IMG/VR virus record: IMGVR_UViG_2913192161_000007
Location: 1 to 33,263 of that record
DNA from: a virus
Taxonomy: Duplodnaviria; Heunggongvirae; Uroviricota; Caudoviricetes
Reading direction: 5' to 3' (one strand)
DNA length: 33,263 bases
In this document: one piece after another, positions 10,064 through 31,571 of the stretch
Position numbering within the stretch: the stretch's first letter is position 1
Layout of the letters: every line of letters begins with the position of its first letter
Program-made: the position numbers and the translations under genes
Notes under the pieces: generated by a model
Seen by the model: the letters and a program-made list of their open reading frames with translations, nothing else
Told to the model about the DNA's origin: nothing
Database searches by the model: none

Positions 10064-10723
10064 ATGGACATCATTCAGTTACTTGAAGTACTGAAGCCCG
10101 CTAAAGACGTGGTAACGGTACAAATTGCGAGTCAAAAGGAGCCACTGACTCCATGGTTTGACCTCGCAAAAGCGGTTCTGCCAGCTGCGGCAACTGCTTT
10201 TGTTGCATGGCGGGCCATGAATCGTTCACACCGCCAATTTGAAATCACCTCAAAACGGCAAGCAGCTGAATTCGACAAAAATATTGCGCAGCAAACCAAA
10301 GCACTGAAAGTGCAAACTCAAATTGCTACGGAAATTGAGATAAAAAAAGAAGAATGTCGGAACGTGCGGGAATCATGTGCCCAGTATCTATCCTTAGCGC
10401 TTGAATCTAATAGGTACAAAGACGATTATAACCTTGCAATGGATTACATTCTTAAGGGTAATAACGATTTTATTGATAAGAGAAATGTAGCACATGAAAG
10501 CTACATTACATCATCGCATCGTACCCTTTCAGCAAGGTTGTTATTGATGACATACCTTAATCCTGAAACCTCACCTTCCTTCTTTGAATCAATCAAGAAT
10601 GTCGATGCATTGCTGATTTCGTCAGGGCCAAACTTCGGTGGTGCCGTAGGTAAATGCCTTGCGGAATGCCGGATGTACATAGAGAAAAAACAAGCCGAAA
10701 TATCTACAATCTCAACAGAATAA
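10064..10723 (+). CDS. Hypothetical membrane-anchored protein, cargo gene at the tin/old-equivalent locus
   Basis: 219 aa, RBS aggaaaaagg. One hydrophobic segment (LAKAVLPAAATAFVAWRAM) followed by a charged, helical-looking region. No motif recognised. Confidence 0.6.
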   Translation: MDIIQLLEVLKPAKDVVTVQIASQKEPLTPWFDLAKAVLPAAATAFVAWRAMNRSHRQFEITSKRQAAEFDKNIAQQTKALKVQTQIATEIEIKKEECRNVRESCAQYLSLALESNRYKDDYNLAMDYILKGNNDFIDKRNVAHESYITSSHRTLSARLLLMTYLNPETSPSFFESIKNVDALLISSGPNFGGAVGKCLAECRMYIEKKQAEISTISTE

Positions 10724-11241: not shown

Positions 11242-12285
11242 TCAGCCTCGTTTGCCCTTAAGTCCTAAATCATAAGCTTCAAAACGGATCACCTCTTTAT
11301 CCAGCCAGCCATTCAGCTCCTGCAGTCGCTTTTGCAGTGGCATCAGTTCATTGCGGACGAAGACACGGCTCGCTTTTTCCACATCACCAAAGCCGCCAGT
11401 GTTGTTGGGAATGATGCCCATCATTTGCGGCGGTACGCGGTGAGCCGCCATCATGTCATCGCGGCTGACGTTCTTGATGTTCAGAAATTCATCCTTCGCC
11501 GCGACTTCCGACAACGGGATAATCTGAATGCCATCTTTTTTGCCGTTAGGCGAGTACATAAACAGGTTGCGGAAGTTGCCCGGTCCTTTAGCACTTTTCA
11601 TTGCCTTGCGGATGTTATTCACATCCTCCTGGTTCTGCGCGGCGTCGGTCATGTACATGATGAAGCCTGCATGACTGCCGTTAATGTAATACTTGCGGCG
11701 GAACAGCGTGGCAGACTCGTTGAGCAGGGCGGATGGAATAGCAGAAAGATAGCCGGGCAGGCCGTAGATCTCCTGATTAATGTCAGGTTCCATCAGATGA
11801 AAAATGCTGCCTTTCGTGAACTGATACGGTTGTGTGGTCATGCCATATTGCACAAACCAGTATGTTTCAAGGTCAAGCCCGCGCCGGGTGTATTTTGCCA
11901 GTGCAGGCTCCAGTGAAATAACTTCACCGAAACGGTTCGTGCGTTTCTCCAGGTAGGCGTTACCAAAAACCAGATAGTCCTGCACAAAACGGGTAAATGC
12001 CTGCTGGCTGAGAAGGCGATGTGGAATATAGGTACTGCTGATAATGTCACGCTTAACACTGATCGGGGAGCTGTGGTGCACGGCGGCGCGGAAGGTGCGC
12101 GCCAGTCCGTCAAAGCTGACGGGCGGCTCATACCAGCGATCCATCTGTACGCATTCCACATAGTCCAGCAGTTCGCGGCGGTCCAGTACAGGAATGGGAT
12201 CACCAAAGCTGAAAGCCTCCGCAACGGATTTTTTAGTTTCTTCTGCAGTTACGGTTTCGCCTGGCGCGATATGTTCTTTCATCAA
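11242..12285 (-). CDS. Q: Portal protein (P2 gpQ-like)
   Basis: 347 aa, immediately downstream of and overlapping the terminase large subunit. Size and position match P2 Q. Confidence 0.85.
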   Translation of the reverse strand: MMKEHIAPGETVTAEETKKSVAEAFSFGDPIPVLDRRELLDYVECVQMDRWYEPPVSFDGLARTFRAAVHHSSPISVKRDIISSTYIPHRLLSQQAFTRFVQDYLVFGNAYLEKRTNRFGEVISLEPALAKYTRRGLDLETYWFVQYGMTTQPYQFTKGSIFHLMEPDINQEIYGLPGYLSAIPSALLNESATLFRRKYYINGSHAGFIMYMTDAAQNQEDVNNIRKAMKSAKGPGNFRNLFMYSPNGKKDGIQIIPLSEVAAKDEFLNIKNVSRDDMMAAHRVPPQMMGIIPNNTGGFGDVEKASRVFVRNELMPLQKRLQELNGWLDKEVIRFEAYDLGLKGKRG

Positions 12286-14048
12286 AAAATCTCCACAATA
12301 TTGCTGGTATTGGCGGACTCGCCCTGCAGCGGTTCGTTAAACAGTGCGTGCATTGTTGCCCAGGCCAGATCGGCATGGCTGGCTTCTTCGCTGCGGCTGG
12401 CTTCATAGGTCGGGCGGTTGCCGCTGGCGGTGGTGGCGCGACGGATTGCCATAAATGACTGCGCAATGTCGGTGTGTCCGGCGTCAAACTCCAGACGACG
12501 GTGGCTGATAATGTCGTAGGCCTTGAGTACCAGGGCGTTTTTAACGTTGGGGTTGTAGACAAACTCCCGGACGGCAGGAAAGAACGCTTTCACGTTCTCG
12601 TAAACCCCGTGACCGACACCTGTCGAGTCGATGCCGATATAGGTCACGTTGTACTGTTCGGTCAGTTTTTTGATGGCGTCCGCCTGGGCGCGAAAGTCCA
12701 TCCCGCGCCACTGGTGACGCTCAAGAATGCGGAACTTACCACCCGGCACGGCTGGCGGTGCCACCACCACGCATCCGGCGCTGTCGCCGTTTTGCGTACC
12801 TTTTGCCGGGTCATAACCGATCCACACTTCGCGCCAGCCAAATGGGCGCAGGGCCAGTGCATGAAAGTCGGTCCAGACTTCCCAGCTGTCCACCATGCAT
12901 GCCTGCAGCTCGCTGAGCGGGAACACGGACGCGAGATCGTCCACAAACTCGCACATCAGCAGGTTCTGGTATTCGTCCGGGCTGTACTCCATGCGTAGCT
13001 GGTCGAGGTCGAACAGGTTACAGCCGCCGCGCACCGCATCTTCCACGGTGACTATCTGGCGGTACTGCCCGTCTGCGCACAGCAGGCCGGGGGCCAGATT
13101 GCTGTGGGACAGGTCGATGTCCACCTTGTCGGCTTTGTTGCGCCCACGGTTGAACAGCGCACCGGACCAGAACGGATAAGCACTATGGGTCAGGCTGGAT
13201 GGCGTGGAAAAATAGGTCTGTCGCCATTTCTTGTGAATAGCCATACCGGAAGCCACTTTACGCAGCTCCTGGAATTTCGGGATCCAGAAATATTCATCCA
13301 GATACAGGTTACCGTGATAACTCTGGGCTGTGCGGGCATTGGTGCCGAGGAAGTAAAGCGTGGCCCCGTTAGGAAGCACCATCGGATCGCCTTTCAGCTC
13401 CACCTCCACTTCTTTGGCAAAGTCGATGATGTACTGTTTAAAGACGTGGGCCTGTGCCTTACTGGCGGAAAGGAAAATCTGGTTACGTCCGGTCAGCAGG
13501 GCGTCAATCAGGGCTTCACGGGCAAAGTAAAAGGTCGCGCCGATCTGGCGTGACTTCAGCAGGTTGCGGATGCGGTTGGTTTTTCCGGCTTCCCACCAGT
13601 GGCGCTGGTAGTTGAACATGGAGGAATGGAAGATTTCTTCCAGCTTCTCAATCTGTTCATCGGTGAAAACATTCTTTTCCGGCTGACGGCGTGGGCCTTT
13701 GTTGCGGTTGGCGATGTTAGGGTTTAAGTCGGCTTCGTTGCCGCCATTGTTAAACTTGCCGATCCGCGCGTGGCGCTCCGACTGGCGCGCCAGCAGGTCA
13801 ATCTCTTTGAAATCTTTCCCTTCTTTGTGCTCCTTCATAATGAGCTGGCAGTAGCGTGCGGCGGTGGTGAGCTGCATCTGATCCAGCGGCCCATAGTCAC
13901 CCCACTTGTCGCGTTTTTTCCAGCTGTGAACGGTTGCAACTTTCTCGCCCAGCATTTCAGCAATGCGGGCGACGCGGTATCCCTGAAAGTACAGCAGCAT
14001 GGCCTGCCGACGGGGATCGAGATCTGCGGGTGTCAGTGTGGTGTTCAT
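12282..14048 (-). CDS. P: Terminase large (ATPase) subunit (P2 gpP-like)
   Basis: 588 aa, divergent from the O-N-M-L operon. Size and position match P2 P. Confidence 0.85.
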   Translation of the reverse strand: MNTTLTPADLDPRRQAMLLYFQGYRVARIAEMLGEKVATVHSWKKRDKWGDYGPLDQMQLTTAARYCQLIMKEHKEGKDFKEIDLLARQSERHARIGKFNNGGNEADLNPNIANRNKGPRRQPEKNVFTDEQIEKLEEIFHSSMFNYQRHWWEAGKTNRIRNLLKSRQIGATFYFAREALIDALLTGRNQIFLSASKAQAHVFKQYIIDFAKEVEVELKGDPMVLPNGATLYFLGTNARTAQSYHGNLYLDEYFWIPKFQELRKVASGMAIHKKWRQTYFSTPSSLTHSAYPFWSGALFNRGRNKADKVDIDLSHSNLAPGLLCADGQYRQIVTVEDAVRGGCNLFDLDQLRMEYSPDEYQNLLMCEFVDDLASVFPLSELQACMVDSWEVWTDFHALALRPFGWREVWIGYDPAKGTQNGDSAGCVVVAPPAVPGGKFRILERHQWRGMDFRAQADAIKKLTEQYNVTYIGIDSTGVGHGVYENVKAFFPAVREFVYNPNVKNALVLKAYDIISHRRLEFDAGHTDIAQSFMAIRRATTASGNRPTYEASRSEEASHADLAWATMHALFNEPLQGESANTSNIVEIF

Positions 14049-14094
14049 GGCACAAACCTACAGCCTTGAATGAAGGCTTTCCCCGCCTGCGGTT

Positions 14095-14112
14095 TGTGTG
14101 GTTGTCGGTACA
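14095..14112. promoter_or_regulatory. Late-promoter activator site (TGT-N12-ACA) in the P/O divergent region
   Basis: tgtGTGGTTGTCGGTaca. Centre is about 55 bp from the P start codon and about 88 bp from the O start codon. Confidence 0.55.
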
Positions 14113-14190
14113 AATACCGCGCATTGTTTCACTGCCCCCATCACCGCAACCATAAGGCTCCAGTAAGTTTTTTCTAACGGAGCACGGCTC

Positions 14191-15024
14191 ATGACAGTGA
14201 AAGCAAAGCGTTTTCGCATCGGGGTGGAAGGTGCCACCACCGACGGACGCGAAATCCAGCGTGAATGGCTGGAACAGATGGCAGCCAGCTACAACCCGGC
14301 GGTGTATACCGCGCTGATTAACCTTGAGCACATCAAGTCTTATCTGCCGGACAGCACCTTTAACCGCTACGGCAAGGTGACGGCGCTGTTTGCTGAAGAA
14401 ATCACGGAAGGTCCGCTGGCAGGCAAGATGGCGCTGTATGCCGACGTTGAGCCAACGGAGTCCCTGGTGGAACTGGTGAAAAAAGGCCAGAAATTATTCA
14501 CCTCTATGGAAGTCAGCCCGAAGTTCGCTGATACGGGCAAAGCCTACCTGGTCGGCCTGGCTGCCACTGATGACCCTGCCAGTCTGGGTACGGAAATGCT
14601 GACATTCAGCGCCAGTGCAGCCCATAACCCGCTGGCAAACCGCAAGCAGAATCCTGCCAATCTCTTTACCGCTGCAGAGGAAACGGTGATCGAACTGGAA
14701 GAAATCCAGGAGGACAAGCCGTCCCTGTTTACCCGTGTCACGGCGCTGTTCACCAAAAAAGAGCAGTCCGACGATGCCCGGTTCTCTGATGTGCATAAGG
14801 CCGTGGAGCTGGTCGCCACTGAGCAGCAGAACCTGAGCGCACGCACCGAAAAATCCCTGTCTGAGCAGGAAGAACGCCTGTCTGAGCTGGAGACTGCTCT
14901 GCAGGAGCAGCAAACCGCCTTTAACGAACTGGTGAATAAGCTGAGTCATGAAGACAGCCGCCAGGACTACCGCCAGCGTGCAACAGGCGGTAACGCCCCC
15001 GCTGACACTCTGACCAATTGCTGA
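14191..15024 (+). CDS. O: Capsid scaffolding protein (P2 gpO-like)
   Basis: 277 aa, RBS ggag. First gene of the rightward head operon, followed by the major capsid gene. Confidence 0.85.
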   Translation: MTVKAKRFRIGVEGATTDGREIQREWLEQMAASYNPAVYTALINLEHIKSYLPDSTFNRYGKVTALFAEEITEGPLAGKMALYADVEPTESLVELVKKGQKLFTSMEVSPKFADTGKAYLVGLAATDDPASLGTEMLTFSASAAHNPLANRKQNPANLFTAAEETVIELEEIQEDKPSLFTRVTALFTKKEQSDDARFSDVHKAVELVATEQQNLSARTEKSLSEQEERLSELETALQEQQTAFNELVNKLSHEDSRQDYRQRATGGNAPADTLTNC

Positions 15025-15040
15025 TGGAGCATAAAACCCG

Positions 15041-16099
15041 ATGAAGAAGAATACCCGCTTTGCTTTTAACGCTTACCTGCAGCAGCTGGCGCGTCTGAAC
15101 GGTGTGGCAGTTGAAGAACTGTCCAGCAAGTTCACCGTGGAGCCGTCCGTGCAGCAGACGCTGGAAGACCAGATCCAGCAGTCCGCCGCTTTCCTGACGC
15201 TGATTAATGTCACCCCGGTGACTGAACAGTCCGGTCAACTGCTGGGGCTGGGTGTTGGTAGTACCATTGCCGGAACCACTGATACCTCCGCGAAAGAGCG
15301 TGAACCCGTCGATCCGACGCTGATGGTCGATGTGGAATACAAATGCGAGCAGACCAACTTTGACACGGTGCTGACCTACGCGAAGCTGGATCTGTGGGCG
15401 AAGTTTCAGGATTTCCAGGTGCGTATCCGTGACGCCATCGTAAAACGTCAGGCACTGGACCGCATCATGATCGGCTTTAACGGCGTGAAGCGTGCGAAAA
15501 CCTCCAACCGTAGCGAAAACCCGCTGCTGCAGGATGTGAACAAAGGCTGGCTGCAGAAAATCCGTGAGGATGCACCGGATCACGTCATGGGCAGCACCAC
15601 CACGGGCGGTGAAACCACACCGGGCGCAGTGAAAGTCGGCAAAGGTGGCGAATATGCCAACCTGGACGCCGTAGTGATGGATGCCGTTAATGAGCTTATC
15701 GACGTGGTCTACCAGGACGATGACGATCTGGTGGTGATTTGCGGTCGTGAACTGCTGTCTGACAAGTATTTCCCGCTGGTCAACAAAGAGCAGGAAAACA
15801 GTGAAAAACTGGCTGCAGATATGATCATCAGCCAGAAACGCATGGGTGGCCTGCAGGCCGTGCGTGCGCCGTTCTTCCCGCCGAATGCGCTGCTGATCAC
15901 CCGTCTGGATAACCTGTCCATCTACTGGCAGGAAGACACCCGCCGCCGTTCAGTTATCGACAACCCGAAACGTGACCGGATTGAAAATTTTGAATCCGTT
16001 AACGAAGCCTACGTGGTTGAGGACTACCGCTGCGCCGCACTGGTGGAAAACATCCAGATTGGCGACTTCAGCGCCGCCGCAGCAGAAGCCGGAGCGTAA
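15041..16099 (+). CDS. N: Major capsid protein (P2 gpN-like)
   Basis: 352 aa; size and order as in P2. Confidence 0.9.
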   Translation: MKKNTRFAFNAYLQQLARLNGVAVEELSSKFTVEPSVQQTLEDQIQQSAAFLTLINVTPVTEQSGQLLGLGVGSTIAGTTDTSAKEREPVDPTLMVDVEYKCEQTNFDTVLTYAKLDLWAKFQDFQVRIRDAIVKRQALDRIMIGFNGVKRAKTSNRSENPLLQDVNKGWLQKIREDAPDHVMGSTTTGGETTPGAVKVGKGGEYANLDAVVMDAVNELIDVVYQDDDDLVVICGRELLSDKYFPLVNKEQENSEKLAADMIISQKRMGGLQAVRAPFFPPNALLITRLDNLSIYWQEDTRRRSVIDNPKRDRIENFESVNEAYVVEDYRCAALVENIQIGDFSAAAAEAGA

Positions 16100-16102
16100 A
16101 CC

Positions 16103-16753
16103 ATGAGCCTGAGTCCCGCACGGCAGCATCGCCTGCGCGTTCAGGCTGAACAGGCCGCCCGCGAGGGCGGCAGCGTTCGCCACGCGTCGGGCTATGACCT
16201 GATGCTGCTGCAACTGGCGGAAGACCGCCGCCGTCTCAAGGGTGTTCAGTCCACGGTCAAAAAAGCGGAAATCAAGGTGGAGCTGCTGCCGAAGTACGCC
16301 GCCTGGGCAGAGGGTGTCCTGGCTGCCGGAGGCGCTCAACAGGATGACGTGCTGATGTACGTGATGCTGTGGCGCATTGATGCCGGAGATTATGCCGGGG
16401 CGCTGGAGATCGGGCGTCATGCCCTGCGTCATGGCTGGGTGATGCCGCTGGGTAACCGCAACGTGCAGACCGTGCTGGCAGAGGAAATGGCAGACGCGGC
16501 GCAGAGCGCAATGCTTGCCGCCACCGGCTTTGATGCCGATCCGCTGCTGCAGACGCTGGAGCTGACAGACGGTCTGGATATGCCGGACCAGTCACGGGCA
16601 CGTCTGCATAAAGCGATTGGCGCGGTCCTGAGTGAAAGCAATCCGGCGTCCGCCCTTAATCATCTCAACCATGCGTTACAGCTCGATCCCCGCTGTGGCG
16701 TGAAAAAAGACAAACAGCAGCTGGAGCGCAGACTGCGCAATGACAGCTGCTGA
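16103..16753 (+). CDS. M: Terminase small (endonuclease) subunit (P2 gpM-like)
   Basis: 216 aa; P2 order O-N-M-L. Confidence 0.8.
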   Translation: MSLSPARQHRLRVQAEQAAREGGSVRHASGYDLMLLQLAEDRRRLKGVQSTVKKAEIKVELLPKYAAWAEGVLAAGGAQQDDVLMYVMLWRIDAGDYAGALEIGRHALRHGWVMPLGNRNVQTVLAEEMADAAQSAMLAATGFDADPLLQTLELTDGLDMPDQSRARLHKAIGAVLSESNPASALNHLNHALQLDPRCGVKKDKQQLERRLRNDSC

Positions 16754-16848
16754 CAGAACGTGCCCCCGCGCACGGGCGGCACGGGGTGGCGAAAGGCACA
16801 GCCACATCAAAACCCCGTCCACCGCCCTTTATATCAGGAGAAAGCAGC

Positions 16849-17313
16849 ATGAAGTTTGTTGCGCCAGAACAGGCACCGGAACAGGCGGAAATCATCAGAA
16901 ATACGCCGTTCTGGCCTGATGTGGACCTGTCGGAGTTTCGCAGTGTCATGCGCACTGACGGCACGGTGACGCAGCCGCGTTTAAAACAGGTTGCGCTGTC
17001 GGCAATTTCGGAGGTCAACGCAGAGCTGTATGAGTTTCGCAGACGCCAGCAGATGCTGGGGTATGCCTCGCTGGCAGAGGTTCCGGCGGAACAGCTGGAC
17101 GGCAAAAGTGAGCGCATTCAGCACTATTTCAACGCGGTTTACTGCTGGGCACGCGCCATGCTCAACGAGCGTTATCAGGACTATGACGCCACGGCGTCCG
17201 GTGTGAAGCGGGGCGAGGAACTGGCAGAAGCAAGCGGTGATTTGTGGCGTGACGCCCGCTGGGCCATCAGCCGGGTACAGGATGCGCCGCACTGTACAGT
17301 GGAGCTTATCTGA
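16849..17313 (+). CDS. L: Head completion/stabilisation protein (P2 gpL-like)
   Basis: ATG 16849 with RBS aggag (ORF track begins upstream at 16786). Ends with ATCTGATG overlap to X. Confidence 0.8.
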   Translation: MKFVAPEQAPEQAEIIRNTPFWPDVDLSEFRSVMRTDGTVTQPRLKQVALSAISEVNAELYEFRRRQQMLGYASLAEVPAEQLDGKSERIQHYFNAVYCWARAMLNERYQDYDATASGVKRGEELAEASGDLWRDARWAISRVQDAPHCTVELI

Positions 17314-17516
17314 TGAAAGTGCGTGCGCATCAGTATGACACGGTGGACGCGCTTTGCTGGCGTCATTACGGGCGCACGCAGGGTGTCACGGAGCAGGTAC
17401 TGAAGGCAAATCCGGGGCTTGCCGAATACGGCCCCTTTTTACCTCACGGGCTGCAGGTGGAGCTGCCGGACACTCCGACTACCACCACCGTGCAGACCGT
17501 TCAGTTATGGGACTGA
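17313..17516 (+). CDS. X: Tail protein X (P2 gpX-like)
   Basis: 67 aa; position between L and the lysis genes as in P2. Confidence 0.8.
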   Translation: MKVRAHQYDTVDALCWRHYGRTQGVTEQVLKANPGLAEYGPFLPHGLQVELPDTPTTTTVQTVQLWD

Positions 17517-17519
17517 ATT

Positions 17520-17735
17520 ATGACGCTTGAGCGAATCAGCGCCTTTATCACGTATTGCATCGCCGTCGTGCTGGCCTGGCTGGGCGATTTGTCCATCAAG
17601 GATGCCTCAACGCTGGGCGGCCTGATGATCGGTGTGCTGATGCTGGCTATCAACTGGTACTACAAACACAAAGCCTACCAGCTTCTGCGCGACGGGCAGA
17701 TCTCGCGGGAGGACTATGAATCCATCAATCGTTAA
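17520..17735 (+). CDS. Holin, probably a pinholin (two-TM class II holin)
   Basis: 71 aa with two hydrophobic segments (ISAFITYCIAVVLAWLG, LGGLMIGVLMLAINWYY) and a charged C-terminus. Immediately upstream of an endolysin with a SAR-like N-terminus. Confidence 0.7.
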   Translation: MTLERISAFITYCIAVVLAWLGDLSIKDASTLGGLMIGVLMLAINWYYKHKAYQLLRDGQISREDYESINR

Positions 17736-18228
17736 ACGCTGCCTTGTCGGGGCCGTGCTGGCTATTGCTGCCACGCTGCCGGGTTTTCAGCAGCTTCACA
17801 CCTCCGTGGAAGGGCTGAAACTGATTGCCGATTACGAAGGTTGTCGTCTGCAGCCGTATCAGTGCAGCGCGGGTGTCTGGACCGACGGCATTGGTAATAC
17901 GTCGGGCGTCATTCCCGGCAAAACCATTACGGAGCGACAGGCAGCAGAAGGGCTGATCTCCAACGTGCTGCGTGTGGAGCGGGCGCTGGAAAGGTGTGTG
18001 AAGCAACAGCCACCGCAGAAGGTGTATGACGCTACGGTGTCGTTTGCCTTCAACGTGGGGACGGGCAATGCCTGTAGTTCCACGCTGGTGAAATTGCTCA
18101 ATCAGCGGCGCTGGGCGGATGCGTGCCGACAGTTGCCGCGCTGGGTGTATGTAAAAGGTGTGTTTAATCAGGGGCTGGATAACCGCCGTGCGCGGGAGAT
18201 GGCCTGGTGCTTACAGGGAGCAAACTGA
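17716..18228 (+). CDS. Endolysin (lysozyme family) with N-terminal signal-arrest-release-like segment
   Basis: 170 aa. N-terminal RCLVGAVLAIAATLPG hydrophobic stretch. Catalytic-region pattern YEGCRLQPYQCSAGVWTDGIGNT (Glu/Asp/Thr) as in T4-type and P21 R-type lysozymes. Confidence 0.85.
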   Translation: MNPSIVKRCLVGAVLAIAATLPGFQQLHTSVEGLKLIADYEGCRLQPYQCSAGVWTDGIGNTSGVIPGKTITERQAAEGLISNVLRVERALERCVKQQPPQKVYDATVSFAFNVGTGNACSSTLVKLLNQRRWADACRQLPRWVYVKGVFNQGLDNRRAREMAWCLQGAN

Positions 18229-18229
18229 A

Positions 18230-18607
18230 ATGAAAAAGAAAGTAATCAGCGGGCTGTTTCTGATGTTATGGATGGCGCTGTTGATCGCAGCAATGGTGTA
18301 TCCGCAGGGGATTTTTCCGGTACTGGCAGCGTCCGGTGTCTGGGTAGCCTGTCTGCTGACATGGGCGGTAATTCCGGTATCACTGGCTGCGTTAATTAAG
18401 AACGGCCCGCTCTGGCAGGAGTTGAGGGCATCTTTGCTGAAGACCATTACCCGAAAAGAAAACGTATTTATCAGCTGGGTGATGCGATTGCTGATTGTCG
18501 TAAGTCTCGCCTGGACGGGGTGGGCCATTACCCTGGTCTTTTATCTGCTGACCGTTATTGCCTTCCGGATCACCCGTAACCAGATGGCGCAACAGGTAGC
18601 AGCATGA
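18230..18607 (+). CDS. lysA: LysA-like lysis-timing membrane protein
   Basis: ATG 18230 (ORF track begins upstream at 18158). About 125 aa with four hydrophobic segments, between endolysin and spanins as in P2. Confidence 0.65.
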   Translation: MKKKVISGLFLMLWMALLIAAMVYPQGIFPVLAASGVWVACLLTWAVIPVSLAALIKNGPLWQELRASLLKTITRKENVFISWVMRLLIVVSLAWTGWAITLVFYLLTVIAFRITRNQMAQQVAA

Positions 18608-19032
18608 ACCGGTTGCTGCTGGTTGTGCTGGCGTTATTACTGGCGACGCTGGGCTGGCAGACGTGGCGGCTGGCTGATGCCAACCGGACCATCAGCAAGC
18701 AGGCGGACGAGCTGCAGAGCAAAAGCCAGGCACTGGCAAAGAGCAACAGCCAGCTTATCAGCCTGTCCATTCTGACTGAAACCAATAACCGGGAGCAGGC
18801 GCGGCTCTATGCCGACGCAGAACAGACCAGCGCGCTGCTGAGACAACGACAACACCGGATTGAGGAACTGAAACGTGAGAACGAGGATTTACGCCGCTGG
18901 GCTGATACTCCTTTGCCTGCTGACATTATCCGGCTGCGGGAACGTCCGGCACTCACCGGAGGTGCAGCTTACCGTCAGTGGTTGTCCGCGAGTGACGCCG
19001 TGTCGGCTGGATCAGGCAGCGCCGCGCACTAA
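18604..19032 (+). CDS. lysB: i-spanin (LysB / Rz-like)
   Basis: 142 aa, N-terminal TM segment (LLLVVLALLLATLGW) then coiled-coil-like periplasmic region. Confidence 0.8.
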   Translation: MNRLLLVVLALLLATLGWQTWRLADANRTISKQADELQSKSQALAKSNSQLISLSILTETNNREQARLYADAEQTSALLRQRQHRIEELKRENEDLRRWADTPLPADIIRLRERPALTGGAAYRQWLSASDAVSAGSGSAAH

Positions 19033-19162
19033 CGGTGATCTGAACGCGTTGCTGGATGAAACGGAGGCCGCCTGGGCGGTCTGTGCAGACAAAGTGGACA
19101 TGATTATTGCGTGTCAGGAGCGAAACAGTGAACAAACCACAATCCCTGCGCCACGCCCTTAA
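18875..19162 (+). CDS. lysC: o-spanin lipoprotein (LysC / Rz1-like), embedded in lysB +1 frame and extending into R
   Basis: Signal peptide with lipobox LTLSGC; overlaps the lysB 3' end and the R 5' end, as in P2. Confidence 0.75.
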   Translation: MRTRIYAAGLILLCLLTLSGCGNVRHSPEVQLTVSGCPRVTPCRLDQAAPRTNGDLNALLDETEAAWAVCADKVDMIIACQERNSEQTTIPAPRP

Positions 19163-19559
19163 TAAAGCAGTGCCTTATGTCCGTAATAACCCGGACAAAC
19201 TGCATCTGTTTGTGGATAACGGTTCGCTGGTTGCCACGGGGGCCAGCTCCATGTCATGGGAGTACCGCTACACCCTGAACGTGGTGATTGAGGATTTCAG
19301 CGGCGACCAGAATTTGCTGATGGCCCCGGTTTTGCTGTGGCTGCGGGATAACCAGCCCGATGCCATGAATAACCCGGCGTTACGGGAAAAGCTATTCACC
19401 TTTGAGGTGGATATTCTGCGCAACGATGTCTGTGATATCAGCCTCAACCTGCAACTGACGGAGCGTGTGCTGGTCAGCACTGACGGCAGTGTGTCGAGTG
19501 TTGAAGCGGTAGCGGAACCCGATGAACCTGAAGAAATGTGGACGGTGAAACGTGGCTGA
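19128..19559 (+). CDS. R: Tail completion protein R
   Basis: GTG 19128 with RBS aggag 7 nt upstream (ORF track begins at TTG 19107). Confidence 0.75.
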   Translation: MNKPQSLRHALNKAVPYVRNNPDKLHLFVDNGSLVATGASSMSWEYRYTLNVVIEDFSGDQNLLMAPVLLWLRDNQPDAMNNPALREKLFTFEVDILRNDVCDISLNLQLTERVLVSTDGSVSSVEAVAEPDEPEEMWTVKRG

Positions 19560-19998
19560 ACTGCAGAAGGTGGACGACTGGCTGAGTGCCTTGCTGGCGA
19601 ATCTTGAGCCAGCCGCAAGAAGCCACATGATGCGCCAGCTGGCGCAGGAGCTGCGCCGGACACAGCAGCAGAATATCAGGATGCAACGCAACCCTGACGG
19701 CAGCAGTTATGAACCGCGACGGGTAACAGCACGCAGTAAAAAGGGGCGCATCAAACGTCAGATGTTTGCAAAGCTGCGCACCACAAAATACCTGAAAACC
19801 GCCGCCAGCGCGGATTCTGCCAGCGTACAGTTTGAAGGCAAGGTACAGCGCATTGCCCGTGTTCATCACTACGGCCTGCGCGATCGCGTCAGTCGTAAGG
19901 GACCGGAGGTCCGTTACGCAGAGCGTCGCCTTCTGGGTGTAAATGATGATGTTGAGGTAATGACCCGTGACATGATTCTGCAATGGCTGGCGGGGTGA
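19552..19998 (+). CDS. S: Tail completion protein S
   Basis: 148 aa, GTG start overlapping the R stop; P2 order R-S-V. Confidence 0.75.
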   Translation: MAELQKVDDWLSALLANLEPAARSHMMRQLAQELRRTQQQNIRMQRNPDGSSYEPRRVTARSKKGRIKRQMFAKLRTTKYLKTAASADSASVQFEGKVQRIARVHHYGLRDRVSRKGPEVRYAERRLLGVNDDVEVMTRDMILQWLAG

Positions 19999-20002
19999 TC
20001 TT

Positions 20003-20020
20003 TGTATCAGCACTGATACA
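20003..20020. promoter_or_regulatory. Late-promoter activator site (perfect palindromic TGT-N12-ACA) upstream of V
   Basis: tgtATCAGCACTGATaca; TGTATCAG / CTGATACA are exact inverted repeats. Centre about 55 bp upstream of the V start codon. Confidence 0.6.
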
Positions 20021-20066
20021 AGTTGCAGCACTGCCGCCTTTCTTCCCCTGATGGCAACCTTTCCCT

Positions 20067-20645
20067 ATGAACGCACAATTAACCGAAATCATGCGCCTTA
20101 TCACCAATCTGATCCGCACAGGTGTAGTCACCGAAGTGGACCGGGAAAACTGGCTGTGTCGGGTGAAAACGGGCGACCTTGAAACCAACTGGATTAACTG
20201 GCTGACACTGCGCGCGGGCAAATCGCGCACCTGGTGGAAACCGTCTGTGGGTGAGCAGGTTGTGCTGTTCAGCCTGGGTGGCAATCTGGAAACCGCGTTT
20301 GCCCTGCCTGCTGTCTACTCAAATCAGTTTCCGCCACCTTCAGACTCTGAGGACGGCAACGTGGTTGAGTACCCGGACGGTGGCTGGTTTGAATACGAAC
20401 CCGCCACCGGGCGCTGGTATGTCAGGGGCATCAAATCAATGGTCATTGAGACCGCTGACAATATCACCCTGAAAACCAGTGAGTTTGTACTGGAGGCTGA
20501 CCGCACGCGCATTAACAGCGAAGTGGTGATCAATGGTGGCGTTACCCAGGGCGGCGGAGCGATGAGTTCTAACGGGATTGTGGTTGATGCACATCAGCAT
20601 ACTGGCGTCCTGAAAGGCGGCGACACAACCGGAGGCCCGGTATGA
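20067..20645 (+). CDS. V: Baseplate assembly protein V (spike)
   Basis: 192 aa. N-terminus and RAGKSRTWWKPSVGEQV region resemble P2 gpV as I recall it. Confidence 0.85.
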   Translation: MNAQLTEIMRLITNLIRTGVVTEVDRENWLCRVKTGDLETNWINWLTLRAGKSRTWWKPSVGEQVVLFSLGGNLETAFALPAVYSNQFPPPSDSEDGNVVEYPDGGWFEYEPATGRWYVRGIKSMVIETADNITLKTSEFVLEADRTRINSEVVINGGVTQGGGAMSSNGIVVDAHQHTGVLKGGDTTGGPV

Positions 20646-21001
20646 CGCTTTATAGCGGGATGAACAATACCAGCGGCAAAGCCATTACTGATATTGACCA
20701 TCTGCGCCAGTCGGTGCGGGACATTCTGCTGACGCCGCAGGGTAGCCGCATTGCTCGCCGTGAATATGGTTCCCTGCTGTCGGCACTGATAGACCAGCCA
20801 CAAAATCCGGCATTGCGCCTGCAGGTCATGTCGGCAGTGTATGTGGCGCTGAGTCGCTGGGAGCCACGGCTGACGCTGGATTCCATCACCATCAACAGCA
20901 ACTTTGACGGTTCTATGGTGGTGGAGCTGACCGGGCGGCAGAATAACGGTGTGCCTGTGTCCCTTTCCGTATCAACAGGAGCAGAGAATGGCAGTGATTG
21001 A
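20642..21001 (+). CDS. W: Baseplate wedge protein W (gp25-like)
   Basis: 119 aa, overlaps V stop (ATGA); P2 order V-W-J. Confidence 0.85.
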   Translation: MTLYSGMNNTSGKAITDIDHLRQSVRDILLTPQGSRIARREYGSLLSALIDQPQNPALRLQVMSAVYVALSRWEPRLTLDSITINSNFDGSMVVELTGRQNNGVPVSLSVSTGAENGSD

Positions 21002-21896
21002 CCTTTCGCAGTTGCCTGCACCGCAGATTGTGGATGTGCCCGACTTTGAGACGCTGCTTGCCGAACGCAAGGCAGAATTTGTGGCGCTTCATCCGAAGGA
21101 TGAGCAGGAAGCCGTGATCCGCACGCTGGAACTGGAATCTGAACCCGTCACCAAATTGTTGCAGGAGAACGCTTACCGTGAGTTGCTTCTGCGCCAGCGC
21201 ATTAACGAAGCCGCGCAGGCAGTGATGGTGGCTTATGCCATAGGGGGCGATCTGGACCAGCTCGCTGCCAATTACAACGTGAAACGCCTGACGGTGACGC
21301 CTGCTGATAATGACGCTGTGCCGCCCGTTGCTGCTGTGATGGAAAGTGATGAAGCGTTACGCCTGCGTGTGCCTGCAGCCTTTGAAGGGCTTTCAGTTGC
21401 GGGGCCAACTGCAGCTTATGAATTTCATGCCCGAAGCGCCGACGGTCGGGTGGCGGATGCCAGTGCAACCAGCCCGGCACCTGCAGAGGTGGTGCTGACT
21501 GTCCTTAGCCGCGAAGGCGATGGAACTGCAGAAAAAGACCTGCTGGATGTGGTGGAAAAAGCTCTGAACAGTGAGAACGTCCGCCCGGTGGCTGACCGTC
21601 TTACGGTTCGCAGCGCAGAAATAATCCCGTATCGCGTGGAAGCCACCATTTTTCTCTATCCGGGACCGGAAGCAGAGCCGGTAATGGCAGCGGCAAAAGC
21701 CAGCCTGCAGAAGTACATCGCCAGTCAGACGCGTCTTGGTCGGGATATTCGCCGTAGCGCCATCTTTGCCGCCCTGCATGTTGAGGGTGTGCAGCGTGTG
21801 GAGCTGGCTTCTCCTCTGGCGGATGTGGTCCTGAACAAAACACAGGCGGCATCATGTACGCAGTGGAGCGTAACCAACGGAGGAACGGATGAATAG
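20988..21896 (+). CDS. J: Baseplate protein J
   Basis: ATG 20988 with RBS aggagcagag (ORF track begins at 20949); 302 aa. Confidence 0.85.
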   Translation: MAVIDLSQLPAPQIVDVPDFETLLAERKAEFVALHPKDEQEAVIRTLELESEPVTKLLQENAYRELLLRQRINEAAQAVMVAYAIGGDLDQLAANYNVKRLTVTPADNDAVPPVAAVMESDEALRLRVPAAFEGLSVAGPTAAYEFHARSADGRVADASATSPAPAEVVLTVLSREGDGTAEKDLLDVVEKALNSENVRPVADRLTVRSAEIIPYRVEATIFLYPGPEAEPVMAAAKASLQKYIASQTRLGRDIRRSAIFAALHVEGVQRVELASPLADVVLNKTQAASCTQWSVTNGGTDE

Positions 21897-22494
21897 TCTG
21901 CTGCCACCGGGTTCAACACCACTGGAGCGCCGACTGGCACAAACCTGCAGCGGGATTTCTGATTTGCAGGTGCCGCTACGTGACTTGTGGGATCCGGCTA
22001 CCTGTCCGGTCAGTTTCCTGCCTTATCTCGCCTGGGCGTTCTCTGTGGATCGCTGGGACGAGAGCTGGACAGAAAGCGTCAAACGCCAGGTGGTGAAGGA
22101 TGCTTTTTATATTCATCAGCACAAAGGAACCACCAGTGCCGTGCGGCGGGTGGTGGAGCCGTTCGGCTTTCTGATCCGCATTATTGAGTGGTGGCAGACC
22201 GGAGAAACACCAGGCACGTTTCGCCTGGATATCGGCGTGCAGGATCAGGGCATCACTGAAGATACCTATCTGGAACTTGAGCGACTGATAAGCGATGCCA
22301 AACCATGTAGCCGTCACATGATCGGCATGTCCATCAATCTGCAGACCAGCGGTCCGCATTGGGTGGGGGCCGTCAGCTATCTTGGCGAAGAAATCACGAT
22401 CTATCCGTATATCAACGAAACAATTATTTCTGGCGGCACCGCGCATGAAGGCGGAGCGGTCCATGTTATTGACACAATGAGAGTGAATCCATGA
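21889..22494 (+). CDS. I: Baseplate/tail protein I
   Basis: 201 aa, RBS ggagg; overlaps J and H. Confidence 0.8.
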   Translation: MNSLLPPGSTPLERRLAQTCSGISDLQVPLRDLWDPATCPVSFLPYLAWAFSVDRWDESWTESVKRQVVKDAFYIHQHKGTTSAVRRVVEPFGFLIRIIEWWQTGETPGTFRLDIGVQDQGITEDTYLELERLISDAKPCSRHMIGMSINLQTSGPHWVGAVSYLGEEITIYPYINETIISGGTAHEGGAVHVIDTMRVNP

Positions 22495-23876
22495 GCACAA
22501 AATTTTATACCCTGCTGACGGATATTGGCGCGGCGAAACTTGCCAGCGCCACTGCACTTGGTGTGCCGCTTAAAATTACCCATATGGCGGTGGGCGATGG
22601 CGGCGGAACATTGCCGACGCCGGACGCAAAGCAGACTGCACTGGTAAATGAGAAACGCCGGGCTGCGCTGAATATGCTCTATATCGACCCGCAGAACAGC
22701 AGCCAGATTATTGCTGAACAGGTGATCCCTGAAAACGAGGGCGGTTGGTGGATACGTGAAGTGGGCCTGTTTGATGAGTCAGGGGCATTGATTGCCGTAG
22801 GCAACTGCCCGGAAAGCTACAAGCCGCAACTGGCTGAAGGCAGCGGACGCACCCAGACCGTGCGCATGGTGCTGATAACCAGCAGCACGGACAATATCAC
22901 CCTGAAAATCGACCCTGCCGTCGTGCTGGCAACCCGCAAGTATGTGGATGACAAGGCACTGGAGCTGAAGGTGTACGTGGATGACAAGATGGCAAAACAT
23001 CTTGCCGCGCCGGACCCGCATTCACAGTATGCACCCAAAGAAAGCCCGACGTTTACCGGAACACCCAAAGCGCCAACGCCAGCGGCGGGGAATAATACCA
23101 CGCAGGTTGCGACCACTGCGTTTGTACAGGCGGCACTGCTCACCCTGATTGACGGTGCGCCTGCCACGCTGGACACGCTGAAAGAAATTGCCGCAGCCAT
23201 TAACAATGACCCGAAATTCAGCACCACCATTAACAATGCGCTGGCACTGAAAGCGCCGCTGTCGAGTCCGGCACTTACCGGGACGCCAACAGCACCGACT
23301 GCGGCACAGTCGGTCAACAATACACAGATTGCCACCACGGCTTTTGTGAAATCGGCGATTGCGGCAATGGTGGGTTCTGCACCTGCGGCACTGGATACGC
23401 TGAATGAACTGGCGGCGGCGCTGGGGAATGACCCGAACTTTGCCACGACGATGTTGAATGCGCTGTCAGGTAAACAACCGCTGGACAATACGCTGACCCA
23501 ATTAAGCGGAAAGGGTGCCCCTGAAATTTGTGATTATCTGGGTGTGAAAGAGGCTGCAAAACGAAAGGTAGGTACAGAGGATGTTGATTCTATCCCGGAT
23601 ATGCGAAGTTTTCAGTCGGAACGTTACTGGCAAAAACTGCCGGGAAAAATTATTCAATGGGTTTATATCCCTCCTCATGATGGCGATCAGGTTATTACCT
23701 TGCCTGTTCCTTTCCCCGGAGGAATTTTAGGTTTTGCTGTGGGCGCAGGATATGAACCATCCAGCGGCCGGATTACCACATTTGCAATAAATGTTGGAAA
23801 AGGGCCTGTTTCAACGATTGTGTCGCGCGCCAGCGATAGTATTTCTGGTGGTTCCTGTATTTTAATAGGTCACTGA
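22491..23876 (+). CDS. H: Tail fibre protein H
   Basis: 461 aa. Conserved P2 H-type N-terminus (MSTKFYTLLTDIGAAKLA...). Two internal fibre repeats of about 55 aa (NNTTQVATTAFVQAAL... / NNTQIATTAFVKSAIA...). Divergent C-terminal receptor-binding region. Confidence 0.85.
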   Translation: MSTKFYTLLTDIGAAKLASATALGVPLKITHMAVGDGGGTLPTPDAKQTALVNEKRRAALNMLYIDPQNSSQIIAEQVIPENEGGWWIREVGLFDESGALIAVGNCPESYKPQLAEGSGRTQTVRMVLITSSTDNITLKIDPAVVLATRKYVDDKALELKVYVDDKMAKHLAAPDPHSQYAPKESPTFTGTPKAPTPAAGNNTTQVATTAFVQAALLTLIDGAPATLDTLKEIAAAINNDPKFSTTINNALALKAPLSSPALTGTPTAPTAAQSVNNTQIATTAFVKSAIAAMVGSAPAALDTLNELAAALGNDPNFATTMLNALSGKQPLDNTLTQLSGKGAPEICDYLGVKEAAKRKVGTEDVDSIPDMRSFQSERYWQKLPGKIIQWVYIPPHDGDQVITLPVPFPGGILGFAVGAGYEPSSGRITTFAINVGKGPVSTIVSRASDSISGGSCILIGH

Positions 23877-23880
23877 ATAT

Positions 23881-24312
23881 ATGAATAAATATCTGTATGA
23901 CAGTAAAACAAATGCCTTTTACCCATTTATTTTGAAGGCAGACTATGAGCGTTCAGGCACCTGGCCTGAAAGTGGTGTGGAAGTTGGAGACGATGTTTTT
24001 CTGGAGTTTGTGAGGATTAACCCAGGCAAAGTCAGGGTTGCAGGAATGGACGGAATGCCTGCATGGGCAGATGCACCGGAACCGACACCAGAACAAATCA
24101 TTGACTCGGCAACCCGTGAAAAACAACGACGTATCGATGATGCCAATGAGTACATGAACAATAAGCAATGGCCGGGTAAAGCTGCCATCGGACGTATGAA
24201 CACCGAAGAGTTGAGAGAGTATAATTTGTGGCTGGATTATCATGACGCACTGAATTCCATTGACGTCAGTATGGCACCAGCCATCAACTGGCCAGAACCT
24301 CCTCCACAGTAA
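23881..24312 (+). CDS. G: Tail fibre assembly chaperone (gpG / Tfa-like)
   Basis: 143 aa directly after H. Confidence 0.75.
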   Translation: MNKYLYDSKTNAFYPFILKADYERSGTWPESGVEVGDDVFLEFVRINPGKVRVAGMDGMPAWADAPEPTPEQIIDSATREKQRRIDDANEYMNNKQWPGKAAIGRMNTEELREYNLWLDYHDALNSIDVSMAPAINWPEPPPQ

Positions 24313-24319
24313 AGTCTTC

Positions 24320-24340
24320 CCCCGCGCCTGCGGGGATTTT
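24320..24340 (+). terminator. Rho-independent terminator after the tail-fibre genes
   Basis: Stem CCCCGC / GCGGGG, loop GCCT, then ATTTT. Confidence 0.6.
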
Positions 24341-24353
24341 GTCATCCCGCCGT

Positions 24354-24371
24354 TGTGCCATTTTCCATACA
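24354..24371. promoter_or_regulatory. Late-promoter activator site (TGT-N12-ACA) upstream of FI
   Basis: tgtGCCATTTTCCATaca, centre about 85 bp upstream of the FI start codon. Confidence 0.55.
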
Positions 24372-24446
24372 AACCCCATCGCGTGCACCCTGCGCGTATC
24401 AACCAGAACATAGGCAGACCCCCTCTACAACCGGAGAGACTGCCTT

Positions 24447-25619
24447 ATGGCTCAGGATTACCACCACGGGGTGCGCGTTGTTGAAGTCAACGAAGGCACC
24501 CGATCCATTACCACGGTGAGCACCGCCATCGTGGGCATGGTCTGCACGGGCGATGATGCCGATGCAAAAATGTTTCCTCTTAATAAACCCGTGCTGATCA
24601 CTGATGTACTGACCGCCAGCGGTAAAGCGGGTGAGTCCGGCACGCTGGCCCGTTCGCTGGATGCCATCGCTGACCAGGCAAAACCCGTGACCGTTGTTGT
24701 GCGTGTGCCACAGGGTGAAACGGAAGAAGAAACCACAACCAATATCATTGGCGCAGTGACCGCCGAGGGTAAAAAAACAGGTATGAAAGCCCTGTTATCT
24801 GCCCAGTCACAGCTCGGCGTTAAACCGCGCATTCTCGGCGTGCCGGGTCACGATAACAAAGCCGTTGCGACTGAGCTGCTGAGTGTGGCGCAAAGCCTGC
24901 GCGGGTTTGCTTACCTGTCAGCGTATGGCTGCAAGACGGTACAGGAGGCGATCACCTACCGCGAAAACTTCAGCCAGCGTGAAGGGATGCTGATCTGGCC
25001 GGATTTTATCAGCTGGGACACGGTGCTGAATGCCGAAGCAACGGCTTATGCCACCGCCCGTGCGCTTGGTCTGCGCGCCAAAATTGATGAGCAGACCGGG
25101 TGGCACAAAAGCCTGTCCAACGTGGGCGTGAACGGTGTCACCGGAATTTCTGCTGATGTGTTCTGGGATCTGCAGGACCCGGCAACCGATGCGGGACTGC
25201 TTAACCAGAACGACGTCACCACGCTTGTGCGCAAGGATGGTTTCCGCTTCTGGGGTTCCCGCTGCCTGAGCGATGATCCGCTCTTTGCCTTCGAAAACTA
25301 CACCCGCACGGCGCAGGTGCTGATGGACACGATGGCAGAAGCGCATATGTGGGCGGTGGACAAACCGCTGAACCCGTCGCTGGCCCGCGACATTATCGAA
25401 GGTATCCGCGCCAAAATGCGCAGCCTGGTCAGTCAGGGCTATCTCATTGGTGGTGATTGCTGGCTGGACGAGTCGGTGAATGACAAAGACACTCTGAAAG
25501 CCGGAAAACTCACCATCGACTACGACTACACGCCAGTGCCGCCACTTGAAAACCTGATGCTGCGCCAGCGCATCACCGATCAGTACCTGGTGAATTTCTC
25601 CAGCCAGGTCAGCGCGTAA
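24447..25619 (+). CDS. FI: Tail sheath protein FI
   Basis: 390 aa, RBS ggagag, followed by the tail tube gene. Confidence 0.9.
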
Positions 25620-31352: not shown

Positions 31353-31571
31353 ATGATGAATTGTCCAAAGTGTGGTCATGCGGCGCACACAAGGAGCAGT
31401 TTTCAAGTAACAGAAAGCACCAAAGAGCGTTACTGCCAGTGCCAAAATATTAACTGCGGGAGCACTTTTGTTACCCATGAAACAGTGGTCCGGTTTATTG
31501 TGACACCTGCAGTGATTGCCACAGCCCCTCCACATCCATTGCCAGGTGGTCAGGGCCATATGAATTTTTAA
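31353..31571 (+). CDS. ogr: Late transcription activator, Ogr/Delta zinc-finger family
   Basis: 72 aa from ATG 31353. MMNCPKCGHAAHTRSS...KERYCQCQNINCGSTF...PHPLPGGQ matches the P2 Ogr C-x2-C...C-x4-C pattern and length. Confidence 0.85.
   Translation: MMNCPKCGHAAHTRSSFQVTESTKERYCQCQNINCGSTFVTHETVVRFIVTPAVIATAPPHPLPGGQGHMNF

Follow-up and report, generated by a model that had tools for sequence, protein, structure and literature searches.

Ogr-type activator sites and predicted leader lengths of the late operons in a P2/186-like prophage

Late promoters of P2, 186 and other P2-like phages

In phage P2 the four late operons are transcribed from four Ogr-dependent promoters (PP, PO, PV and PF), and in the GenBank record pO and pP share a single annotated activator site, their starts lying 55.5 bp on either side of a TGT-N12-CCA core. 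The V-operon start of that record lies at 10308, exactly where the V coding sequence begins, and the pF site is 57-59 bp from its start. P2 is among the few phages with leaderless genes that have been studied in E. coli, the source being Christie and Calendar 1985 (PMC4633059). The targets of Ogr are inverted repeats with their centre near -55, and P2 late transcription requires both Ogr and its contact with the alpha-subunit C-terminal domain of RNA polymerase (PMC3152322). Phage 186 has the B-dependent promoters p12, pV, p32 and pJ, and in its record pV and p12 have one annotated B site in common, a pJ site being annotated as well. Genome papers on P2-like phages routinely assign PP, PO, PV and PF by motif, with one site for PP and PO (PMC3931495, PMC5694545). 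In Smp131, phiRSA1 and phiRSY1, for example, TGT-N12-ACA or TGTTGT-N13-ACAACA served to recognize four regions, P and O having a site in common; for these phages the published distances to the start codon are no more than a range, -50 to -90, and a leaderless interpretation of the short spacing class was not found in the papers.

The window, i.e., the whole stretch of 33,263 nucleotides analysed here, is a P2/186-like prophage whose closest relatives are Klebsiella phage 4LV2017, the E. coli record CP019275.1 and SopEPhi-like phages. The gene map and Pfam matches place a site before each of the late operons P-Q, O to S, V to G and FI to D, one site being common to the divergent P and O, and Pfam assigns P as terminase, O as scaffold, V as spike and FI as sheath. 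The window has the four promoters, the same four operons and the one bidirectional P/O site of P2, and the architecture is also that of 186. In the places of 186 cI and cII the window has a 210-aa ORF, on the minus strand upstream of int, and a 169-aa ORF, a likeness by position and size only. The cargo genes orf30 and fun(Z), which stand before V and FI in P2, are absent from the window. The sites of the window are perfect TGT-N12-ACA, whereas P2 has imperfect ones, with TGT-N12-CCA at both P/O and F and either TGT-N12-CAA or TGT-N11-ACA at V, and those of 186 read TGT-N12-CCA or CGG. Neither the common P/O site nor the leaderless V transcript is new: both are in GenBank records and the literature, and the second is textbook knowledge for P2. 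The modest new detail is a predicted leaderless P, known for V of P2 but not for P.

Three activator sites and a cognate activator gene

Three 18-mers that match TGT-N12-ACA exactly lie at 14095-14112 in the P/O gap (TGTGTGGTTGTCGGTACA), at 20003-20020 upstream of V (TGTATCAGCACTGATACA) and at 24354-24371 upstream of FI (TGTGCCATTTTCCATACA), which are the coordinates where a sequence-only reading of this DNA had placed three late-promoter elements. The V site had been described there as a perfect extended palindrome, and it is indeed made of 9-bp arms around a 2-bp centre (TTGTATCAG-CA-CTGATACAA, 20002-20021). In the window the bare motif is at chance level, with 8 matches against 8.19 expected, whereas the extended TTGT-N12-ACAA has exactly three matches against 0.69 expected, and three or more were obtained in 2 of 100 shuffles. 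The window has just three intergenic gaps in front of late operons, and each of them holds one extended match; the remaining five bare matches are within coding sequence. The weight rests on the extended motif, its position and its conservation; the count of the bare motif is uninformative. An exact match at 14037-14054 was rejected as a site, as it overlaps the P start codon, is half coding, and has CCA in place of ACA in many relatives.

The exact site was found at a near-fixed distance from the start codon in all distinct upstream variants of the IMG/VR relatives: at 55.5 bp from the P ATG in 43/43, at 54.5-57.5 bp from the V ATG in 27/27, across about 13 unrelated upstream sequence families, and at 84.5 or 85.5 bp from the FI ATG in 57/57, a second, unrelated upstream allele included. 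The interior bases of the P/O site vary among its 43 distinct variants, and the relatives' sites share the symmetric consensus TTGTRY-N8-RYACAA, taken from positions that were free in the search pattern. The invariance of the half-sites is partly circular, the sites having been gathered by pattern, and the independent evidence lies in the flanking and inner R/Y positions and in the presence of a site in each variant. The IMG/VR scan, which used an alignment of the P N-terminus, gave close relatives only (at least 98% identity), and the wider diversity comes from individual phage records. At the level of sequence comparison, these data settle the question of whether the sites are real. The proposal that they are chance matches, or that they have a function other than late transcription, such as a terminator or another protein's operator for the V palindrome, could appeal to the chance-level count of the bare motif and to the position of the V site directly after the S stop codon. 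It is hardly credible in view of the enriched extended motif, the location of the other five matches in coding sequence, the loss of ACA from the 14037-14054 match in relatives, and the fixed distance kept in every relative even amid unrelated surrounding sequence. As an intrinsic terminator the V palindrome was rejected, having a 2-nt loop and no T run. The only terminator-like structure reported there by the scan was a weak stem with three G-C pairs just upstream of the palindrome, at 19975-19996.

A cognate activator gene is located downstream of D, at 31353..31571 on the plus strand, and encodes a zinc-finger protein of the Ogr/B/Delta family with 72 aa from the ATG at 31353 (PF04606 Ogr_Delta, E = 1.3e-20). 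The protein shares 54% of its residues with P2 Ogr and 63% with 186 B, and CX2C-X22-CX4C is kept. The sites were assigned as Ogr-type late-promoter activator sites because of their position, this cognate gene and their homology to annotated features of P2 and 186. The sites, their conservation and fixed spacing, the activator gene and the agreement with the annotated P2 and 186 features are direct observations; Ogr binding and dependence in this phage are what we infer from them. The three TTGT-N12-ACAA palindromes would be bound by the phage's own Ogr/B-type zinc-finger activator, which would recruit the host RNA polymerase via its alpha subunit, as in P2. The target promoters would have a weak -10 element, a missing consensus -35 and a site whose centre lies some 55 to 57 bp before the start, and three sites would serve four promoters, the P/O site acting bidirectionally. 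A consensus scan of the three site-bearing gaps found no consensus sigma-70 promoter, a result that covers consensus matches only; the core promoters are probably weak and activator-dependent. Searches for a fifth late promoter with one or two mismatches stayed at chance level and gave no convincing intergenic match.

One promoter geometry and two leader lengths

The distance from site centre to start codon is 55.5 bp for both P (ATG at 14048) and V (20067), and 87.5 and 84.5 bp for O (14191) and FI (24447), respectively, in agreement with the two spacings of about 55 and about 85-88 bp noted beforehand. A site-anchored alignment showed that each of the four window promoters has a -10-like hexamer within 1 bp of the P2/186 offset, and the hexamer offsets, compared with P2/186 promoters that have annotated starts, predict starts 55.5-56.5 bp from the site centres. 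The P and V ATGs are at index 66 from the site, and the annotated P2 starts are at index 66-68. P2 likewise has its sites about 55-57 bp from the start, no consensus -35, and promoter-specific -10-like hexamers at the same offset; in the P2 and 186 records taken together, site centres and mapped starts are about 55 to 58 bp apart. The predicted hexamers of the window are weak, agreeing with TATAAT at two to three of six positions, and their assignment leans partly on the alignment. The two spacing classes most likely reflect leader length and not two promoter geometries. We put at about 0.8 the probability of the reading as a whole, in which the three sites are ordinary Ogr-type activator sites for four late operons, P and V being leaderless and O and FI leadered. 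The P_O and P_F mRNAs would carry leaders of about 29-31 nt with a Shine-Dalgarno (SD) sequence, and transcripts from P_V and P_P would have the A of the start codon as their first base, so that V (baseplate spike) and P (large terminase subunit) would be translated from mRNAs with no leader. The start positions in the window are transferred from P2 and 186, so that the exact starts and the leaderless translation are predictions for this phage.

The sequence-only reading had reasoned that with an element at about -55 the V and P transcripts would be nearly leaderless, and this is supported by ATGs at the P2/186 start position, a hexamer 6 nt upstream and no SD. Its other option, a single site serving P and O at different geometries, holds in part: one site does serve both, and the predicted-start geometry is equal, the difference lying in the leader. 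Its broader statement that the late regulon can be read from the sequence was justified, the outcome being the textbook P2/186 regulon.

At the V promoter, the predicted activator site (20002..20021; no strand is assigned to any of the three sites) is the perfect palindrome TTGTATCAGCACTGATACAA, which begins 4 nt past the S stop codon. The predicted -10 hexamer of P_V is CAACCT at 20055..20060 on the plus strand, and P2 and 186 have CAATCT and CATTCT within 1 bp of the same offset; unrelated V-upstream alleles have CATCAT, CATGAT, TATGTT, CAATAT, CATAGT and similar sequences in this place. The hexamer is followed by 6 nt (ttccct) and the V ATG (20067..20069, plus strand), the A of which is the predicted +1 of a leaderless mRNA. 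V had been said to lack a recognisable ribosome-binding site, and V has no SD in the window, nor is a purine-rich one conserved among its variants. The V start is aligned with those of P2 and 186; the P2 V mRNA starts at its ATG, the window V does the same by prediction, and the ATG of 186 orf32, the V homologue, is 56.5 bp from its site.

The FI promoter follows an intrinsic terminator after G, at the end of the V operon (24320..24341, plus strand; CCCCGCGCCTGCGGGG followed by the T-rich tail ATTTTGT), in a place equivalent to that of t45 in 186 and of the putative V-operon terminator in P2. The predicted P_F activator site is at 24353..24372 (TTGTGCCATTTTCCATACAA), and the predicted -10 hexamer is GAACAT at 24406..24411 on the plus strand, with GAAAAT in P2 and GACAAT in 186 at or within 1 bp of this offset, ahead of the starts annotated for them. 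The predicted start is A24418, which gives a plus-strand leader of 29 nt with the SD GGAGAG at 24433-24438 before the FI ATG at 24447. The motif AACATAGG is present in both FI upstream alleles.

The P/O gap of 142 bp contains a single exact site, the predicted shared Ogr-type binding site of P_P and P_O at 14094..14113 (TTGTGTGGTTGTCGGTACAA, an exact match), and its position matches the single annotated sites of pO/pP in P2 and pV/p12 in 186. On the plus strand, the predicted -10 hexamer of P_O is AACCAT at 14148..14153 (AAACAT in relatives; GAAACT at the same offset in P2 P_O and 186 pV). The anchored alignment and conservation put the P_O start at about 14160, to within about 3 nt, and predict a leader of about 31 nt, its SD being GGAG (14179-14182), before the O ATG (14191). 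On the minus strand, the predicted -10 hexamer of P_P is TAGGTT at 14055..14060 (TATGTT in relatives), at the same offset from the site as its P2/186 counterpart TAGCCT, which occupies -12 to -7 of the annotated P-promoter starts; positions 1, 2 and 6 are invariant across 39 variants. The hexamer is followed by 6 nt (tgtgcc) and the P ATG (14046..14048, minus strand). The first base of this codon, A14048, would be the +1 of a leaderless mRNA and stands at the index of the P_P start in the P2 record, and a conserved purine-rich SD is absent across the 43 variants. The P start is aligned with the gpP starts of P2 and 186.

The short P and V distances are not artefacts of start choice, because both start codons align with P2/186 starts. 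In-frame ATGs do exist further in, at V Met9 (20091) and P Met17 (14000), and if these were the real starts both genes would join a class of 80-100 bp with ordinary leaders, the V spacing from 20091 being 79.5 bp. Such a misassignment is very improbable: the first ATGs match the V and P N-termini of P2 and 186 in alignment and are kept in all variants, both internal ATGs lack an SD, and the P2 record has the V start at the first ATG. The start codon was ATG in 43/43 P variants and 27/27 V variants, and AUG is required for leaderless initiation in E. coli (PMC4633059).

A search for a second, degenerate site in the P/O region, a check proposed along with the three elements, gave TTGT-N12-ATC at 14125-14142, with 85.5 bp between its centre and the P ATG. 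It is improbable as an activator site and was rejected as unnecessary: it has no 3' half-site and is better read as the -35-like TTG of P_O. The same sequence enters into an unlikely alternative in which the P mRNA is leadered, either from this second site or from a P_P of another geometry, with the activator at about -41, transcription beginning about 14 nt before the ATG and the AGG of TAGGTT as a weak SD. The degenerate site has a distance like that of the O/FI class and its TTGT (14124-14127) is conserved, but it has no ACA or CCA partner and takes the -35-like place of P_O, and one shared site suffices in P2 and 186. In the window the AGG does precede the P ATG by 8 nt, but it is ATG in many relatives (TATGTT) and so is not conserved as an SD, and the segment around 14068-14076, where the -10 for an upstream start would be expected, is the most variable of the gap. 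Also against this alternative, the TAGnnT hexamer lies exactly at the P2/186 offset, and in several other genera too the P ATG is 55.5-57 bp from a single site.

Leaderless P and its counterparts in other phages

The P genes of P2, 186, PSP3 and Kp4884-2 have a 23-nt leader with a GAGG SD and a centre-to-ATG distance of 78.5 bp, whereas the P ATG of the window is at the predicted +1. P, which is without this SD-bearing leader, is the only departure of the window from P2 and 186, and its layout is also found in several other Peduoviridae genera. Six other Peduoviridae (YenM06.16-2, SEN5, phiCTX, phiX216, FLC10 and Smp131) have P distances of 55.5-57 bp and no SD. TAGCCT, TAGCGT or TACGCT occupies the same place before the P ATG in YenM06.16-2, SEN5, RSA1 and phiX216. 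The family does not keep one spacing throughout: in RSA1 the site and the P ATG are only 50 bp apart.

We lean, by a small measure, towards the view that P is leaderless like V in this lineage and apparently also in YenM06.16-2, SEN5, phiCTX, phiX216 and FLC10, and that two of the four Ogr-dependent operons are leaderless-headed, the leadered P of P2, 186 and PSP3 being the exception, with a 23-nt SD segment gained or retained. Leaderless initiation could in this way keep the low-copy proteins at the operon heads (terminase and spike) low from promoters as strong as those of the scaffold and sheath. Against a leaderless P stands the poor efficiency of leaderless translation in E. coli, the next gene being the portal gene Q, whose product is needed in 12 copies per virion; Q does, however, overlap the 3' end of P and could be translationally coupled to it. 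No mapped late starts for this lineage were found in the literature, and the parts of a Salmonella prophage transcriptome paper (P2-like BTP5) reached by a term search give no P or V start.

The classic leaderless mRNAs of E. coli are lambda cI from pRM, P2 gene V and Tn1721 tetR, and the window differs from them in that two of its four late operons, P-Q and V-G, are predicted to be leaderless-headed. The prediction is that the P-Q operon, like V-G, begins leaderless in many P2-like phages, and if this is true a widespread natural example joins the short list of enterobacterial leaderless genes. The overall importance is small, as the regulon is an ordinary textbook one. The motif and its fixed offset would also fix the true V and P start codons in these enterobacterial prophages, a very common group. 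In some database records, such as those of phiX216 and phiCTX, P begins upstream of the ATG that is aligned with the P starts of other phages.

Predicted late-operon activator sites

The gene order of the window is of the P2/186 type: int is followed by ORFs resembling 186 cI, apl and cII in place and size and by replicase A, after which Q and P lie on the minus strand, while O-N-M-L-X-lysis-R-S, V-W-J-I-H-G, FI-FII-E-T-U-D and, last, a small zinc-finger gene lie on the plus strand. The Pfam assignments were the large terminase subunit for P (12282-14048, minus strand) and, on the plus strand, the GPO scaffold protein for O (14191-15024), the baseplate spike for V (20067-20645) and the tail sheath for FI (24447-25619). 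The nearest database records, at about 95% identity, were the E. coli record CP019275.1, Klebsiella phage 4LV2017 and many Klebsiella prophages, and the P N-terminus is 99% identical in SopEPhi. The zinc-finger ORF as mechanically listed (31308-31571, plus strand, 87 aa with a GTG start) matched the Ogr/Delta zinc finger (PF04606, E = 1.3e-20) but is too long for the activator gene; the start predicted by homology is the ATG at 31353, giving a protein of 72 aa which shares 54% identity with P2 Ogr and 63% with 186 B and keeps the CX2C-X22-CX4C motif. The stretch upstream of it, 31285-31352, may hold a candidate promoter comparable to the CI-repressed pB of 186.

The sites bound by Ogr are inverted repeats with their centre at about -55, and Ogr also requires contact with the alpha subunit (PMC3152322). 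The sequence-only reading had placed TGT-N12-ACA elements between P and O (14095-14112), upstream of V (20003-20020) and upstream of FI (24354-24371). All three 18-mers sit at exactly these coordinates, and the V site is indeed a perfect palindrome, with 9-bp arms and a 2-bp centre. The two spacings that it described also hold, the distance from site centre to ATG being 55.5 bp for both P and V, 87.5 bp for O and 84.5 bp for FI. In alignments with the P2 and 186 proteins, the start codons of P and V coincide with the N-termini, so the short distances are genuine and do not come from a wrong choice of start; the same alignments exclude translation of P and V from internal start codons.

The bare motif is not enriched in the window (8 matches, 8.19 expected), and the five further matches all fall within coding sequence. 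With one more flanking base per side, TTGT-N12-ACAA occurs exactly three times (0.69 expected; three matches were reached in 2 of 100 shuffles), and these sites fill the only three gaps preceding late operons. That the sites are chance matches is ruled out by their conservation in three IMG/VR scans of close relatives: the P/O site lay 55.5 bp from the P ATG in 43 of 43 distinct gap variants, TGT-N12-ACA was found 54.5-57.5 bp from the V ATG in all 27 distinct V-upstream variants, and it stood at 84.5 or 85.5 bp in 57 of 57 distinct FI-upstream variants. Of the comparative evidence for the predicted sites, the V set says most, as it includes about 13 mutually unrelated sequences, each with its own site and -10-like hexamer at an equal distance from the V ATG. 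The positions left free by the search pattern gave a symmetric consensus, TTGTRY-N8-RYACAA, whose eight inner bases vary freely, which looks like the pattern of a protein-binding dyad. A fourth exact TGT-N12-ACA, at 14037-14054, was rejected; it lies 58 bp away from the P/O site and runs across the start codon of P, its ACA is CCA in many relatives, and it probably reflects chance plus coding constraint. With one mismatch, the extended motif is also matched at 9906-9925 (TTGAACAATGAGCTGTACAA), in apparently non-coding sequence between the replicase region and an unassigned ORF of 219 aa (10064-10723); this match lies about 148 bp from the ATG of that ORF and is probably due to chance.

A probable single geometry with two leader lengths

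Twelve promoters, four each from the window, P2 and 186, were anchored on the activator site and read in the direction of transcription. In all twelve, a -10-like hexamer begins 43.5-44.5 bp away from the centre of the site, and it is promoter-specific across phages: TAGGTT in the window and TAGCCT in both P2 and 186 for the P promoter, AACCAT and twice GAAACT for the O promoter, CAACCT, CAATCT and CATTCT for the V promoter, and GAACAT, GAAAAT and GACAAT for the FI promoter. The annotated P2 and 186 starts fall at index 66-68 of the anchored alignment. The V and P ATGs of the window both have their A at index 66, six bases past the hexamer, and no Shine-Dalgarno sequence (SD) precedes either, which supports the earlier proposal that an element at about -55 would make both transcripts nearly leaderless and bears out its remark that V lacks a recognisable ribosome-binding site. 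The O and FI ATGs lie 31 and 29 nt further on and are preceded by GGAG and GGAGAG. The shared hexamer offset and the ATG positions together indicate one geometry up to the predicted start at all four promoters. With starts predicted from the P2/186 alignment, the two spacing classes would be leaderless (P and V) and leadered (O and FI). A single P/O site would serve both divergent promoters, as had been suggested, but not at different geometries, since it is symmetric to both predicted starts, as in P2. A scan of the three gaps yielded no consensus sigma-70 promoter.

The P2 GenBank record has one activator site for pO and pP, with a TGT-N12-CCA core centred 55.5 bp from each of the annotated starts at 3016 and 3127, a pV site whose start, 10308, coincides with the opening base of the V coding sequence, and a pF site at 57-59 bp from the pF start. 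In the 186 record, one B-protein site is given for activating pV and p12, and the pJ site has a mapped initiation point. The P2 P/O and F sites (3060-3087 and 17558-17586) are alike beyond the dyad, reading GTTGTG...TAAGCCATCCGGGAC and GTTGTG...TTAGCCAACCGGGAC; their downstream CCGGGAC block is absent from the window sites. Genome papers on P2-like phages routinely assign four late promoters by this motif, PP and PO sharing a single site (PMC3931495, PMC5694545), and P2 is named, with Christie and Calendar 1985 as the reference, among the few phages whose leaderless genes have been studied in E. coli (PMC4633059). The late regulon of the window is of this ordinary, well-described P2-family type, in a new member.

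The short P layout

The sole real difference from P2 and 186 is at P. In P2, 186, PSP3 and Klebsiella phage Kp4884-2, 23 extra bases with a GAGG SD separate the P start from the ATG, and the centre-to-ATG distance is 78.5 bp; this segment is absent from the window lineage. Across 39 equal-length variants of the gap, the ATG is invariant, as are positions 1, 2 and 6 of TAGGTT, which some variants have as TATGTT. A leadered P transcript, arising from a second degenerate site or a class II-like geometry, is disfavoured: a candidate site does exist (TTGT-N12-ATC, 14125-14142), but conservation is lacking for the candidate SD (AGG), the alternative upstream -10 would lie in the stretch of the gap that varies most, and one site suffices in P2 and 186. 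The window departs from the two model phages in a modest detail, the predicted leaderless start of its terminase gene P.

The predicted leaderless P start seems widespread. The short layout, without an SD and often with a TAGCCT- or TACGCT-type hexamer, is also found in phages of other genera. The distance from site centre to P start is 56.5 bp in Yersinia vB_YenM_06.16-2, 55.5 bp in Salmonella SEN5, 57 bp in Burkholderia FLC10, 56 bp in Stenotrophomonas Smp131 (start possibly GTG) and 50 bp in Ralstonia RSA1; in Pseudomonas phiCTX and Burkholderia phiX216 it is 57 bp, measured to the ATG aligned with the window P start and not to the annotated start. No published reading of this layout as a leaderless P mRNA was found in open-access text. 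In some database records, P is annotated to begin upstream of the ATG aligned with other P proteins (430 versus 451 in phiCTX, 415 versus 451 in phiX216). Annotated starts of P and V in P2-like phages could be corrected with the help of the motif and its offset.

Variation upstream of V and FI

The S-V junction (window 19999-20066) is a mosaic hot spot, the V proteins of relatives being 91-99% identical despite the unrelated upstream sequences, and cargo is probably inserted there, as at the position of orf30 in P2. The window carries a minimal version, in which the site begins 4 nt past the S stop and no terminator separates S from V. An intrinsic terminator lies past G at 24320-24335. The FI-upstream region (window 24313-24446) occurs as two unrelated alleles among relatives, that of the window type carrying TTGTGCCATTTTCCATACAA and the other TTGTGTGAATAACGGTACAA, with a different leader and SD; the two alleles have nothing in common but the dyad half-sites, their spacing and the -10 block AACATAGG.
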